From Macrostomum lignano (Eukaryota), in the NCBI GenBank assembly GCA_002269645.1, contig NIVC01002955.1:64684-128683 (forward strand): a stretch of 64,000 nt of DNA. The letters are read 5' to 3'. A program made the position numbers and the translations under genes. Of this stretch, positions 37,738-52,570 are shown one piece after another (within the stretch, counting starts at the first letter, position 1; each line of letters opens with the position of its first letter). Under the pieces are notes generated by a model, which was not told the DNA's origin, searched no databases, and worked only from the letters and a program-made list of their open reading frames with translations.

Positions 37738-38356
37738 AGTAGAAGGCATGAGGGGGCTTCTGGGACAAAATTTTTCACGTCCTCCATAATCCACCTAAAT
37801 CCATCCATATTATCCCTGACAGAATCAGAAAAAAAGGGGGGTCGCACTCGCTCACAAAACCTCCTCCATAATCCCATTAAATCCATCCACATTATCCCTG
37901 ACAGAATCAGAAAAAAAAGAGGGGCCGCACTCGCTCACAAAACCTCCTCCATAATCCCATTAAATCCATCCATATTATCCCTGACAGAATCAGAGCATTA
38001 TCCCTGACAGAATCAGTGCATAACAGGTGTCCACTAACACCTGTTATGCTCACTGACACTGACATAATCCACTAACATCCACCCAGAAACAATCAGAAAA
38101 AAATCTGCATTCTTCTCCCCACATTCAATTCGCAACGTGCTACCACATCCCTAAGACTTTAAATCATCAGCGCAGGGTCCTCACCCTTTGAAAAAAATCT
38201 AAATTCTCAATAAAAATGTTTCCAGTTGTCTCTCCAGGTTCTTATTACAAAACGCACGAGCCTAATTACAAGAGTAAGTACCGATGCAAACTTGAATGCA
38301 GCGAGTACATGAGAAAATATTGGCCCGGCGTTGATATCAATGTCTCTAATATTAAT
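37738..38356 (+). repeat. Left terminal inverted repeat
   Basis: Reverse-complement match to 52570-51329. Contains ~80-bp tandem subrepeats and a 13-bp-stem hairpin at 38018-38049. Confidence 0.93.
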
Positions 38357-38386
38357 ATTATATTTTTGCGCTCCCTCAGCAAATAG
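38216..38386 (+). CDS. Small TIR-encoded protein, left copy (56 aa)
   Basis: MFPVVSPGSYYKTHEPNYKSKYRCKLECSEY...; paralog of 51233-51469. Confidence 0.45.
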   Translation: MFPVVSPGSYYKTHEPNYKSKYRCKLECSEYMRKYWPGVDINVSNINIIFLRSLSK

Positions 38387-38449
38387 CAGTTACCCCACCC
38401 CTTTTCGAAATGCAGCTGTTGCGCTTGGCTGCGAATAATCTTTCCCGAC

Positions 38450-38929
38450 TCAAGCGCCTCTCTCAACCCCCAGCTCTTTCAACAGTCTTCCCAATTCATT
38501 GTTTGGAGCACACAAAATAAACCCTGCTCCCGCGCGTCCGCCCTCTCTCCCTGTGCACCCACCCTCAGCGCCCATTCCTAATCCCAACTTTGCCTTACTA
38601 AAAATAACAGCTTTAACTAGCTTCCGAGCAATCGACTCACGAAATCCGCTGGAAGCCCCTATATTGTCTAGTCTCCTAAGCATTTCTTTGTCCCAGCGAT
38701 TCTTCTCCTCAGGAAAATCTCTATATTTAACATCGTGCCACATGCAGACAGAGTCTAGCTCGTTCACAGGCTCATGCCCAGGATTTGGATTATCGTTTGT
38801 ATCTAACTGTATTTCAAGTGGATTCAAAGGCCCGCAATATTTATAGCCGGGAAGTGTCCAGCCTTTGTTCGGATGAGGAAGCTTTTCTATCAGTCCATGT
38901 GAATCTAACTTACCACCAGAGCGCTGCAT
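38450..38929 (-). CDS. Parvovirus VP1u-like phospholipase A2 (PLA2X-type)
   Basis: LPGYKYCGP calcium-loop motif and NELDSVCMWHDVKY catalytic His-Asp helix. Confidence 0.88.
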   Translation of the reverse strand: MQRSGGKLDSHGLIEKLPHPNKGWTLPGYKYCGPLNPLEIQLDTNDNPNPGHEPVNELDSVCMWHDVKYRDFPEEKNRWDKEMLRRLDNIGASSGFRESIARKLVKAVIFSKAKLGLGMGAEGGCTGREGGRAGAGFILCAPNNELGRLLKELGVERGA

Positions 38930-38959
38930 TATTTTATTTAAAATTTTCTTTTTAAATAA

Positions 38960-40009
38960 ATGACAGATCAGAAACTTAAAAAACTCTACTACAGCGACAA
39001 AGGATTCTTTGTAGGAAAAAATGCAGTCACCAAACTCACAGAACTAAGTAAGGAACCAAAAGCTAAAGTAGAAAAGTGGCTCTCTAAGCAAGCAGTCTAC
39101 CAAGTCTATTTCCCACCAGTAAAATTTGAAAGGCCCCATTTCAGTATTTATAAACCTAATGAAGCGCACCAAGCAGATCTTTTGTTTCTCCCCAATGACT
39201 CAGGCTACAAGTATGCTCTCACAGTAATAGACATTGCTTCCAGATATAAGGAAGCTCGCCCACTCAAGACGAAGAAGTCAGAGGTTGTTGCCAGCGCACT
39301 GCAAGATATTTATAAAAACTCTCCGCTCACATACCCCCAAATCTTTATGACCGACCCGGGTAAGGAATTCATGGGTGTAGTGAAATCCCTTATGGAAAAG
39401 AAAAACACAGAGATTCGCTATGGCAGAACAAACTTGCACAGAGACCAGGCTTTTGTGGAAAGATTCAATCTAACTCTAGCCAAGAGGCTATTCACTAAGC
39501 AGACAGCTGAAGAGCTGAAACTAAAAAGTGGTCAGTACTATTCAAAATGGACAGACCGCCTCCCCACTGTTATAGAACAACTGAACAATGAAGTCACACG
39601 CATGACTGGATTGAAACCATCCCATGCAATTAAACAAGACACTGTCGAACTTAAGGCATCTCATAGAACAGACAACAACACGACAACCCCACACAACACA
39701 CACAACACAAAACACACCTCTAACTACCCTAAGCTTCCAGGAGTTGAATCACCATACATACTGACAAACTCTGAGTTTCTACGCTTTTTATATCTACCTG
39801 GAGAGCTAGAGAAAGACACCAAAAGAAAAGCTACAGATCCATACTTCAGCCTTGATGTACATAAAATAGACAGACATTTTACCTCCGACTCCGGTGACTA
39901 TTACTTTTTATCTCAGGCCTTTAACCCTAAATCCCCCACACGGTCATTCACTAGAGCTGAACTCCTAGTGATACCGCTGACACAGAAATTAATTAAAATA
40001 TTAAAATAA
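38960..40009 (+). CDS. Retrovirus-like (rve) DDE integrase
   Basis: HQADLLFL, LTVIDIASRY, MTDPGKEF and VERFNLTL; open 349-aa frame. Confidence 0.95.
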   Translation: MTDQKLKKLYYSDKGFFVGKNAVTKLTELSKEPKAKVEKWLSKQAVYQVYFPPVKFERPHFSIYKPNEAHQADLLFLPNDSGYKYALTVIDIASRYKEARPLKTKKSEVVASALQDIYKNSPLTYPQIFMTDPGKEFMGVVKSLMEKKNTEIRYGRTNLHRDQAFVERFNLTLAKRLFTKQTAEELKLKSGQYYSKWTDRLPTVIEQLNNEVTRMTGLKPSHAIKQDTVELKASHRTDNNTTTPHNTHNTKHTSNYPKLPGVESPYILTNSEFLRFLYLPGELEKDTKRKATDPYFSLDVHKIDRHFTSDSGDYYFLSQAFNPKSPTRSFTRAELLVIPLTQKLIKILK

Positions 40010-50341: not shown

Positions 50342-50364
50342 ATATTTTTTTGTGGGTGAAAAAA

Positions 50365-51228
50365 ATGGAAGCTATAGCCGAAAGACTAAACAACATTGTT
50401 TCACACTCTAAGGAGAGCATTCCTATTACAGTAACCGGGCGAATTAATGACTCAAACGGGATATTTAATGAAAAATTAGAGCAGGCGATTCGCCTGGATC
50501 CAGGTGCTAATTACCATGTCTATCTTAACGACTTCACTGGTTGGTCAAACGTTCCCAATGTGATGGCAGCAAATAATAAGTTTTATTACAAATGGAAAGG
50601 TGCAGCAGAAGACCCTGTGGTATTCCATGTGAGCACGCAAAGTGTGGATACCTACAATAACTTTCTAGAAAATGTCTTTACTAAGAGAGGCCATTTTGAG
50701 ACACCTGATGCGAGTAAGCCAGAGAAGAAACTGTTCCCTGTCAAACTAACCTATGATCTCACTGTAATGAGAGTGGTCATGCAAGTTCACAAAAATGCGG
50801 AGGTTGAGTTTAAAGATGACACTTGGTATAGGGAACTAGGATTCGAGAAGAAAGTTTATAAGGCAGAATCCGCGGCGCAGACCGCCACTCAAGCATCGGG
50901 GACTGTTAGAATGGTCCGGGAAAGTGTAAGCGGTTTGTTCTTAGCACCCAATATTGCAGACATTGTAAAGGGTTTGAATATTCTAATCAGAAGCAATCTC
51001 AGTCTTGATTGGGTATTTAAGGGAAAGCGAACGAATATTTTGTACAACATCTCCAACTCTGTTGCTGGAGGACAGATGGTGGTAGAGAAACCAAATCCAG
51101 TGAAAAGAGTTGTATTGAGTAATAAAGAGATTCACGAGATTGTGCTACAGTTTGAGACTGAAGATGGGATGGGCGTTGATTTTAATGGGGAAGAGTTTGT
51201 ATTGACGTTGATCATTGAGAGAATGTAA
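50365..51228 (+). CDS. Minor capsid protein (penton-like)
   Basis: NVPNV..NNKF, ILIRSNL and the C-terminal IVLQFETEDGMGVDFNGEEFVLTLII typical of Polinton mCP. Confidence 0.85.
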   Translation: MEAIAERLNNIVSHSKESIPITVTGRINDSNGIFNEKLEQAIRLDPGANYHVYLNDFTGWSNVPNVMAANNKFYYKWKGAAEDPVVFHVSTQSVDTYNNFLENVFTKRGHFETPDASKPEKKLFPVKLTYDLTVMRVVMQVHKNAEVEFKDDTWYRELGFEKKVYKAESAAQTATQASGTVRMVRESVSGLFLAPNIADIVKGLNILIRSNLSLDWVFKGKRTNILYNISNSVAGGQMVVEKPNPVKRVVLSNKEIHEIVLQFETEDGMGVDFNGEEFVLTLIIERM

Positions 51229-51232
51229 GAAA

Positions 51233-51469
51233 TCACAATTGCTTAATGATTTCTGCAAAGTTATAGTAGCTGTCGTAATCGTTAATGACTACTCCATACT
51301 TATGAAACCAGTGTCTTTGGAGAGCTAGATTAATATTAGGGACATTGATATCAACGTTGGGCCAATATTTTATCATGTACTCACTGCATTCCTTCTTGCA
51401 TTGGTACTTACTCTTGTAATTAGGCTCGTCCGCTTTGTAATAAGAACCTGGAGAGACAACTGGAAACAT
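51233..51469 (-). CDS. Small TIR-overlapping protein, right copy (78 aa)
   Basis: AAAAATG start context like the other viral ORFs; paralog at 38216. Confidence 0.55.
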   Translation of the reverse strand: MFPVVSPGSYYKADEPNYKSKYQCKKECSEYMIKYWPNVDINVPNINLALQRHWFHKYGVVINDYDSYYNFAEIIKQL

Positions 51470-52570
51470 TTTTAGAGAAAAATTAGATTTTTTTCAATGG
51501 GTAAGGACCCTGCGCTGATGATTTAAAGTTTTAGGGATCTGGTTTCGCGTTGCGAATTGAATGTGGGGAGAAGAATGCAGATTATTTTCTGATTGTTTTA
51601 GAAATGTTATGGGTGGATGTCGGTGTCAGTGAGCATAACAGGTGTTAGTGGACATCTGTTATGCTCTGATTCTGTCAGGGATGGCTACCGGACATTTGCC
51701 CTCCGGCATTTGCCCTCCGGACATTTGCCCTCCGGCATTTCCCCTCCGGACATTTGCCCTCGAGGACATTTGCCCTCGGGGACATTTGCCCTCCGGACAT
51801 TTGCCCTCCGGACATTTGCCCTCGGGGACATTTGCCCTCGGGGACATTTGCCCTCCGGACATTTGCCCTCCGGACATTTGCCCTCCGGACATTTCCCCTC
51901 TGGAAAAGTACAGGTAAGGCTGGGGATAGGGTAGGGCGCGGGTATATATTGCTTACTAGAAAAGGATGAGTTGTTGGCTGGAGAAGAACCCGATGGATGC
52001 AAGAGGCGGGAGGATGAGGTTGGTGCTGGAGGAACGACGGGTGGGTACAGGAGGAGGTGAGGTGAGTAATGTGCGAGGGGGTAAATTTGCAGAGGGCAAA
52101 TGTGCGGAGGGGAAATGTCCGGAGGGCAAATGTCCGGAGGGCAAATGTCCGGAGGGCAAATGTCCCCGAGGGCAAATGTCCCCGAGGGGAAATGTCCGGA
52201 GGGCAAATGTCCGGAGGGGAAATGTCCCGGAGGGCAAATGTCCGGAGGGCAAACGCCGCCGAGGGGAAGTGCCGGAGGGCAAGTGCCGGAGGGGAAGTGC
52301 CGGAGGGCAAATGTCCGGAAGCGGTCAGGGATAATAATGGATCGATTTAATAGGATTATGTTCGAAGTTTTCGGAGCAAGTGCGACCCCCTTTATTTCTG
52401 ATTCTGTCAGGGATAATATGGATGGATTTAGGTGGATTATGGAGGATGTTTTGTGAGCGAGTGCGACCCCCCTTTTTTTCTGATTCTGTCAGGGATAATA
52501 TGGATGGATTTAGGTGGATTATGGAGGAGGTGAAAAATTTTGTCCCAGAAGCCCCCTCATGCCTTCTACT
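51329..52570 (-). repeat. Right terminal inverted repeat (interrupted by a MITE)
   Basis: Inverted match to 37738-38356. Confidence 0.93.
51683..52323. mobile_element. Foldback/Mutator-like MITE inserted in the right TIR
   Basis: Inverted arms of 15-bp CCGGACATTTGCCCT modules around a unique core; 9-bp TSD GTCAGGGAT (51674-51682 / 52324-52332); absent from the left TIR. Confidence 0.85.

Follow-up and report, generated by a model that had tools for sequence, protein, structure and literature searches.

The 64,000-nucleotide window analysed here (contig NIVC01002955.1; all positions are those of the window) contains between 37738 and 52570 an element that the first-pass annotation had described as a near-complete endogenous adintovirus/polintovirus, possibly virion-competent and intact apart from a few 1-bp breaks. 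This raises the question of whether the locus really holds one intact provirus and, if not, what kind of entity the element and its relatives in the same genome represent. The element is a Maverick/Polinton of the adintovirus type, and its ends could be placed exactly, with AGTAG at 37738 and CTACT at 52570. We consider it probable that it belongs to an endogenous family which has been mobile recently and may well still be so, and that the copy in the window is an assembly hybrid of two insertions. At the level of the family, we found linear genomes of about 14 kb with terminal inverted repeats (TIRs) at more than 100 assembled places, 6-bp target-site duplications, absence of the element from some allelic sites, and mosaicism. 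The family is more aptly regarded as a young, virus-like population than as a single intact provirus.

The window copy lacks the 6-bp duplication, since the left flank ends with GGGGTG (37732-37737) and the right flank starts with TAGGAA (52571-52576). Each hexamer is one half of the duplication of a different insertion. The left flank belongs to a dynein heavy chain locus, in which the hexamer lies within a 22-bp tandem array (37312-37737). The element is absent from the homologues of this flank on contigs C2096 and C1243, and the matching right junction was located on contig C3351, where the element is followed by GGGGTG, the array and DNA of the dynein locus. The right flank belongs to a WSC-domain gene, for which contigs C313, C380 and C84 hold empty allelic sites, the DNA upstream of these sites differing from the left flank of the window. 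Contig C3229 has the right junction of the window; the duplication around its copy is perfect, and the DNA to the left of it is 99% identical to the empty site of C313. Altogether 94 sites separate C3351 from C3229; the window agrees with C3351 at 68 of 70 of them up to 45389 and with C3229 at 24 of 24 from 47293 onwards. The switch from the dynein-locus to the WSC-locus insertion is located in the 1.9 kb between these positions (45389-47293), where the two near-identical copies have no distinguishing site. On the evidence of the assembled sequences, the window copy consists of two separate insertions that are joined. This chimeric structure accounts for the lack of a target-site duplication, as either hexamer is duplicated at the locus from which it comes. 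The joining refutes the annotation of the locus as a single, near-complete and intact provirus, and the WSC-locus version on C3229, as assembled, lacks about 1.07 kb of the gene for the protein-primed family B polymerase (pPolB) and carries a 1-kb duplication as well as a foldback insert. The C3229 copy also contains about 2.1 kb of unrelated DNA between its left repeat and the phospholipase A2 (PLA2) gene (L064 6173-8274), and extra DNA occurs at this place in several other copies.

The chimera is very probably an assembly misjoin, which would have arisen in those 1.9 kb where the two copies are indistinguishable. It could also be that the hybrid is real and that ectopic recombination joined the dynein and WSC loci in the living chromosome. 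This would fit with a switch that is single and clean, with the absence of the duplication from 2 of 15 other copies, and with Polinton copies having been proposed as drivers of rearrangements in C. elegans (10.1101/2024.01.15.575659). However, the assembly itself contains both parental junctions, the one on C3229 as a whole and the one on C3351 as the right end of a copy whose contig stops within the element. Moreover, the switch falls in a stretch where the two copies cannot be told apart, and a further change of haplotype occurs in the right flank of the element near 53300. We thus regard a real hybrid as unlikely and prefer the misjoin.

The broken reading frames pose a similar question. 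Six breaks occur in core genes of the window copy, namely at about 41655, at 41876, at about 42030 and at 43051-43056 in pPolB, at 44650 in the protease gene and at 49518 in the major capsid protein (MCP) gene. Over 6504 bases compared with C3229, the window shows 2 substitutions but 10 indels, and over 4894 bases compared with C3351, 13 substitutions and 26 indels. In natural mutation, indels usually do not exceed substitutions, and because they do so here between assembled versions of one insertion, we read the breaks as consensus errors. The breaks at 41876, about 42030, 44650 and 49518 are absent from both sister versions, and at each of the six break places the length in short-read contigs from four runs of four studies is not that of the window. 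The window state at 43051-43056 is found in 11 of 20 other assembled copies, whereas three of the four short-read runs show the other state only; a state that is common in the assembly and absent from three short-read runs points to a systematic error. At 43056, copies without any single-nucleotide difference fall into opposite states, and recurrent breaks appear in shifting sets of copies. Thus, consensus errors in unpolished repeats are the apparent cause of five of the six breaks in core genes. The first-pass annotation had ascribed the breaks to the error pattern of the neighbourhood. The error as such is supported for these five by the sister versions and the short-read contigs, whereas its local nature is not, since three host exons show 0 gaps against two homologous loci, and the pattern therefore belongs to the repeat copies.

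Several observations weigh against this explanation by error. The break at 41655 is common to C3351 and 2 of the 20 other copies and may be real. All of the 20 assembled copies carry frame-changing indels in pPolB (2-12 each), and private indels are only weakly tied to homopolymers, with 25 of 56 1-bp events at runs of at least three against a background of 33%. The short-read indel states at the breaks refer to the matches listed, and contigs drop rare variants, which leaves private mutation compatible with the short-read result. It might also be that the breaks are real and leave most copies as dead fossils, which a few intact copies have mobilised in trans. In line with this, no examined pPolB is unbroken in the assembly, several copies share some of the breaks, 1 kb of pPolB is deleted from the C3229 copy, and nested transposons occur. 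On the other hand, the excess of indels between two assembled versions of one insertion, the shifting copy sets with opposite states at 43056 and the contradiction of the commonest break by short-read contigs are all at odds with dead fossils, and nonsense singletons are few (9 over 15 gene segments). We hold it to be very unlikely that the family consists mostly of fossils and continue with consensus errors as the cause of most breaks. Frame-changing indels are unevenly distributed over the 20 copies, with 2.2-2.7 per kb in pPolB, protease and ATPase and 0.6 per kb in MCP; polishing possibly fails where the copies are most alike.

Counting copies and looking for insertion polymorphism, both proposed in the first-pass annotation, gave positive results. 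The integrase has at least 116 matches in the 764-Mb genome (best 116 of 1665 candidates scored), the others being 89-97% identical, and the penton has at least 137 (136 scored of 584 candidates) with 91-100% identity. Insertion polymorphism is given by the empty allelic sites of the WSC locus on C313, C380 and C84. From 20 fetched copies, 15 had both ends; among these, the 6-bp duplication was perfect in 12, had one mismatch in one and was absent from two. This count omits the five copies for which one or both ends were not detected (C1342, C1412, C4675, C986 and C2523); for C1342 and C1412, an extended search did not bring up the missing ends either. Perfect duplications were also found around the C3229 copy and around four palindromic copies described below. 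The aligned terminal repeats measure about 340-1125 bp and differ within one copy by 0.4-12%. Two points speak against recent mobility at the scale suggested by these numbers: the copy counts include allelic duplicates, being inflated by assembled haplotypes, and the difference of 0.4-12% between paired repeats is larger than fresh, homogenised ends should show. Lengthened terminal repeats occur on C875 (899 bp, 6 substitutions), where the repeat includes the end of the penton gene, and on C1304 (1125 bp, 4 substitutions). In a small sample of 18 target sites, analysed without a control, there was a weak symmetric preference, with C in 16 and A in 15 of 36 strand-pooled sites at the first and second position, respectively.

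In order to describe selection, pooled dN/dS values (ratio of nonsynonymous to synonymous substitution rates; Nei-Gojobori) were calculated over 15 gene segments from 20 copies and the window. They range from 0.05 to 0.26 in all segments, with 0.11 for MCP, 0.18 for the penton, 0.05 for the ATPase, 0.09 for the protease, 0.15 for the integrase and 0.15-0.26 for pPolB. These values are not neutral; neutral dN/dS together with a lack of expression was one of the outcomes that the first-pass annotation had named against its reading. The corresponding polymorphism ratio of singletons (pN/pS) is 0.19-0.44 over the segments other than the ATPase and 0.24-0.28 for MCP and penton. MCP is free of frame-changing indels in 16 of the 20 copies; it was no criterion for choosing the copies but adjoins the penton, which was. 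As far as comparison at the codon level goes, this shows purifying selection on all genes, including the capsid module. Some points weaken this conclusion: the 20 copies were chosen from the best integrase and penton matches, so the sample is biased to intact genes; the pairs are non-independent and were pooled without a likelihood test; pN/pS of ATPase singletons is as high as 0.83 (13 changes); and some of the divergence may have accumulated before endogenisation. Two allele classes of the ATPase can be told apart, with 8 and 13 sequences and a distance of about 20%, and the 404-aa protein ORF404 (open reading frame 404) has three, with 6, 11 and 4 sequences and distances of up to about 27%. 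These classes are found in mixed combinations, the C-terminal part of pPolB differs by 0.9% on average, most regions are 0.9-3% divergent among copies, and distance correlations between element regions are weak. This shows that the copies are recombinants of two or more lineages, formed either in replication or by conversion between integrated copies.

The genes of the element are arranged in the order PLA2 (minus strand), integrase, pX-like gene, pPolB and protease (plus), hairpin protein, coiled-coil protein, ATPase, ORF122 and ORF404 (minus), MCP and penton (plus), and ORF78 (minus). Integrase, pPolB, protease, ATPase, MCP and penton, all named by the first-pass annotation, were each confirmed by motif, profile or fold, and the catalytic motifs of the core enzymes appear to be in place, judged by motif patterns that we assume to apply. 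The rve (retrovirus-like) integrase (38960-40009, plus) has the DDE motifs and an rve match (E 2e-8), with an indel at 39975 near the C-terminus. pPolB (40583-44427, plus) is split into five pieces. In its N-terminal part we see Cys and His motifs that are presumably vOTU-like, followed by an exonuclease with an inserted nuclease domain and by the polymerase motifs. Pfam analysis yielded DNA_pol_B_2 (E 5e-10) and Endonuclease_7, the latter supporting the predicted endonuclease-VII-like insert. One window piece reached 39.5 bits against PF03175, and the unbroken 1268-aa natural frame of another copy gave no PF03175 match. Among 526 longer homologues, the best relatives are 40-46% identical, the named ones coming from a sea slug, a coral and a leafhopper, and the same nuclease insert is often present. 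An OTU-like domain in the N-terminal part of pPolB has been described (PMC11161782), and the nuclease insert was rejected as a novelty, since it is common in relatives (PMC10748475).

The adenain-like maturation protease (44521-44972, plus) gave a weak Peptidase_C5 match on the window piece (E 0.006), and the unbroken natural frame of another copy exceeds the adenain cut-off. The A32/FtsK-type packaging ATPase (46470-47270, minus) has Walker motifs and matches PF04665 (Pox_A32; E 7.5e-7). For the double jelly-roll MCP (49056-50341, plus), the match to a DJR-like profile in the window is weak and under the cut-off (E 6e-5); relatives pass the PF21738 cut-off. Most other copies have MCP as one 428-aa frame, and a structure model of such a frame, although of low confidence (predicted local distance difference test, pLDDT, 54), has its best fold matches in the MCPs of PBCV-1, Sputnik and mavirus (E 6e-10). 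The frame of the penton, or minor capsid protein (50365-51228, plus), is unbroken, and its model (pLDDT 92) matches best the mavirus penton (E 4e-10) and also the adenovirus penton base; by fold, proteins of polinton-like viruses, adomaviruses and giant viruses ranked above named adintovirus ones. When the PDB was searched by sequence with the pPolB core or the MCP profile, only chance matches came up, MCP pattern scans of viral and metagenome contigs gave 12 and 236 pattern matches with 0 confirmed loci, and for three window proteins there was no exact match in the protein collection.

Among the accessory genes, PLA2 and the pX-like gene are supported by Pfam as predicted. PLA2 (38450-38929, minus) is a stand-alone parvovirus-type domain protein, unfused to pX, with the expected motifs (PF08398, E 1.5e-13, rounded 2e-13; dN/dS 0.17). 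The adenovirus pX-like protein (40013-40459, plus; PF05829, Adeno_PX, E 4e-7) is a putative core or membrane-active precursor and contains motifs that resemble protease sites, as we assume the site pattern to be. Similar motifs are present in the 122-aa ORF122 (47426-47794, minus; dN/dS 0.10), a candidate core or membrane-lytic precursor for which a Pfam scan gave no match. The labels "PZ-like" and "fiber" received no support, coiled-coil profile matches on window proteins having E values of 0.004-0.08; the coiled-coil-like protein (45665-46453, minus) varies in length between copies. ORF404 (47811-49025, minus) is Gln/Pro-rich and lineage-restricted, with four unnamed relatives of 34-42% identity and no usable match in a protein atlas search. 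Pfam assigned no informative family to these four relatives nor to 29 penton relatives. The hydrophobic-hairpin protein (44924-45568, minus; 214 aa, dN/dS 0.16) has unnamed clusters as atlas neighbours at 0.94, which is weak by the tool's own measure. The 78-aa ORF78 (51233-51469, minus) overlaps the inner right TIR and is found at both ends in some copies.

The left TIR (37738-38356, plus) starts with AGTAG and contains 83-bp subrepeats; the right TIR (51329-52570, minus) ends with CTACT. Three inverted arms of 185, 79 and 270 nt align at 95, 90 and 91% identity. Both TIRs are thus present with ends and arms, as had been annotated, whereas the right one is not continuous but split by the foldback element at 51683-52323.

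By analogy to the described class, the integrase would insert the genome, and the released strand would be copied by protein-primed synthesis with pPolB, whose vOTU-like domain may free the terminal protein (PMC11161782, together with the motifs seen here). According to roles proposed in PMC8502044, the ATPase would package the DNA in a capsid of double jelly-roll proteins and pentons, the pX-like and ORF122 precursors would be matured by the protease, and PLA2 would aid entry. Co-replicating genomes would recombine and give rise to the shuffled alleles. There is a good chance that passage through particles was part of how the copies multiplied; this is concluded from selection on the capsid module, and the same argument has been made for fish Mavericks (PMC8097293). 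In this sense, "possibly virion-competent" may apply to the family, the capsid genes of which appear to be under purifying selection, but not to the sequence in the window. A less probable explanation is that the element spread inside the cell as a self-synthesising transposon and that the capsid constraint is a trace of a recent free-virus invasion. The low divergence among copies and the existence of defective forms with perfect duplications would suit such a spread, and the support for the particle route is indirect, coming from selection, which counts against our reading. However, MCP and penton singletons are as depleted of amino-acid changes as those of integrase and pPolB, and the mostly unbroken MCP frames as well as the fish precedent also argue against a purely intracellular spread. 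We therefore retain particle passage as the preferred route.

Candidates for palindromic derivatives were taken from inverted, equal-scoring pairs of integrase or penton matches, and all four turned out to be, as assembled, palindromic elements with one end doubled and a perfect 6-bp duplication. Their arms measure 1752 bp with 2 substitutions (C1584), 4832 bp with 12 (C633), 6227 bp with 3 (C2140) and 5433 bp with 27 (C975), corresponding to 99.2-99.9% identity. Three of them double the capsid end and are without the integrase end, whereas C975 doubles the integrase end and is without capsid genes. For two of the four central junctions and the retroelement junction described next, no second locus was found among the best 40 of 542, 517 and 348 candidates. 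In C2140, a 4.4-kb retroelement (L075 4125-8519) is located at the same site in both arms; it contains an ORF with a SAP domain, a reverse transcriptase, a tyrosine recombinase and direct terminal repeats, and many copies of its end occur elsewhere. We take it to be DIRS/Ngaro-like. Since each tested junction was found at its own locus only among these candidates, amplification of the palindromic copies as a subfamily is unsupported, which is compatible with in-place inverted duplication. Adapter read-through was rejected as a cause, since the inversion does not extend beyond the ends of the element and perfect duplications surround it. The palindromes could be template-switch products of linear replication that were integrated in trans, or they could be in-place inverted duplications started from a terminal repeat. 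Our literature search found no description of palindromic Polinton derivatives.

With a protein-primed family B polymerase, a DDE integrase, AG...CT-ended TIRs, a double jelly-roll MCP, penton, ATPase, adenain-like protease and 6-bp duplications, the family belongs to the Polintons/Mavericks at family level, which bears out the class assignment of the first-pass annotation. Like adintoviruses (PMC8502044), it has a probable animal context, judged by the intron-containing dynein heavy chain and WSC genes at its flanks, an rve integrase, a putatively OTU-type pPolB, adenain, an FtsK/A32 ATPase, a hexon-like MCP, a penton, pX-like and PLA2 genes, and terminal repeats. Unlike in Alpha adintoviruses, whose polymerase is archetypal for PF03175 and whose PLA2X is a fusion, the PF03175 match is weak or absent here, and PLA2 (minus) and pX (plus) are separate genes; yet PLA2 as such has been described as characteristic of the virion modules of Alpha (PMC8502044). 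Beta adintoviruses are marked by a divergent pPolB grouping with the Terrapene exemplar, by GasderminX and by cupiennin-like genes (PMC8502044); the divergence from PF03175 fits with this, whereas no gasdermin was among the Pfam matches of the window proteins. Judged by description, the polymerase seems to lean towards Beta, while PLA2 is an Alpha trait.

In comparison to vertebrate Mavericks (PMC8097293), the element is similar in its size, which lies within 12.7-24.6 kb, its 6-bp duplications, its AGT/ACT-type ends and the purifying selection on the capsid. It differs in its gene order, which does not follow their two modules, and in having AGTAG/CTACT instead of (AGT)2/(ACT)2 ends. The vertebrate genes PZ, PW and PM were not identified among the element genes, PZ being without a profile to search. 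The copy number is far above the vertebrate median of 8 and near the maxima of 101-287, the selection is weaker (dN/dS 0.05-0.26 within one genome vs about 0.001 across cyprinids), and the palindromic arms of 1.8-6.2 kb exceed the longest vertebrate TIR of 1447 bp (PMC8097293). The nuclease insert resembles the HNH-type domain in pPolB of nematode and oomycete pPolB2 Polintons (PMC10748475), a likeness by domain type. In flatworms, Mavericks are known as a repeat class, expanded in Dugesia and controlled by PIWI-interacting RNAs in Schmidtea (PMC8532177; 10.64898/2025.12.11.693146); these planarian elements are set beside ours by description. Among the relatives of MCP, penton and ORF404 are unnamed metagenome proteins (P0001-P0009, P0130-P0132, P0235-P0238), with MCP identities of 71-77% (seven proteins) and 43-44% (two) and penton identities of up to 69% over full length and 90% on a fragment. 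They lie on short contigs, most below 4 kb, without informative names, and all MCP relatives are of this kind. Our literature search found no description of this element family, although Repbase, subscription journals and bioRxiv supplements, which were outside its reach, may hold it. The family is an addition to a described class.

A further-reaching scenario, which we put forward tentatively and hold to be doubtful as a whole, would be a polintovirus population that replicates at present in a soft-bodied invertebrate (probably a flatworm). It would form particles, its two ancestral lineages would recombine freely with each other, and it would shed copy-back-like palindromic defective genomes that are integrated in trans. 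The element may also have crossed to a second organism: a short-read run labelled organism B (X10) contains long element pieces of about 99% identity, for instance one of 1718 bases that differs at 12 letters and by 4 gaps. These pieces may stem from a close relative, a mixed sample or a transfer. If the scenario were true, this would be a natural animal system for watching Maverick particles and defective genomes, with a capsid lineage otherwise represented by unnamed metagenome fragments. According to PMC8097293, particles of vertebrate Mavericks have not been observed, and PMC8502044 reports only that adintovirus DNA co-purified with particles from insect cell culture. A genome with more than 100 young, polymorphic and selected copies is a good place for seeking particles, free linear genomes and new insertions. 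Both the palindromic copies and the mosaic alleles are relevant to how such elements replicate and recombine. Furthermore, in repeat-rich assemblies a broken frame or a missing duplication can be an artefact, which means that the number of "defective" Mavericks may be overestimated.

The insert that splits the right TIR is a non-autonomous foldback transposon of 641 bp (51683-52323), which is flanked by a 9-bp duplication GTCAGGGAT, has arms of 15-mer repeats and is not part of the virus. ORFs made up of these tandem 15-mers at 51600-52450 were considered as genes and rejected, as they are part of the insert. By the length of its duplication, we assume the transposon to be Mutator-like. It is dispersed in the genome, with at least 40 full or near-full matches (best 40 of 174 candidates) of about 90-99% identity, and the insert is common to the window copy and the C3229 copy. 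On both sides, the element is flanked by intron-containing host genes. The dynein heavy chain exons to the left (34673-37300, minus strand) are of the axonemal type (DHC_N1, E 1e-69), and the 22-bp array with the element lies just upstream of them; a dispersed 20-bp tandem repeat is present at 36562-36848. The WSC-domain gene to the right (52720-54320) has a signal-peptide-like start and several paralogues in the genome. A second foldback-like structure, with arms of 16-bp-based repeats, is located at 58410-60238, and two inverted copies of a dispersed repeat with 94-98% identity are found at 19279-19603 and 56370-56693.

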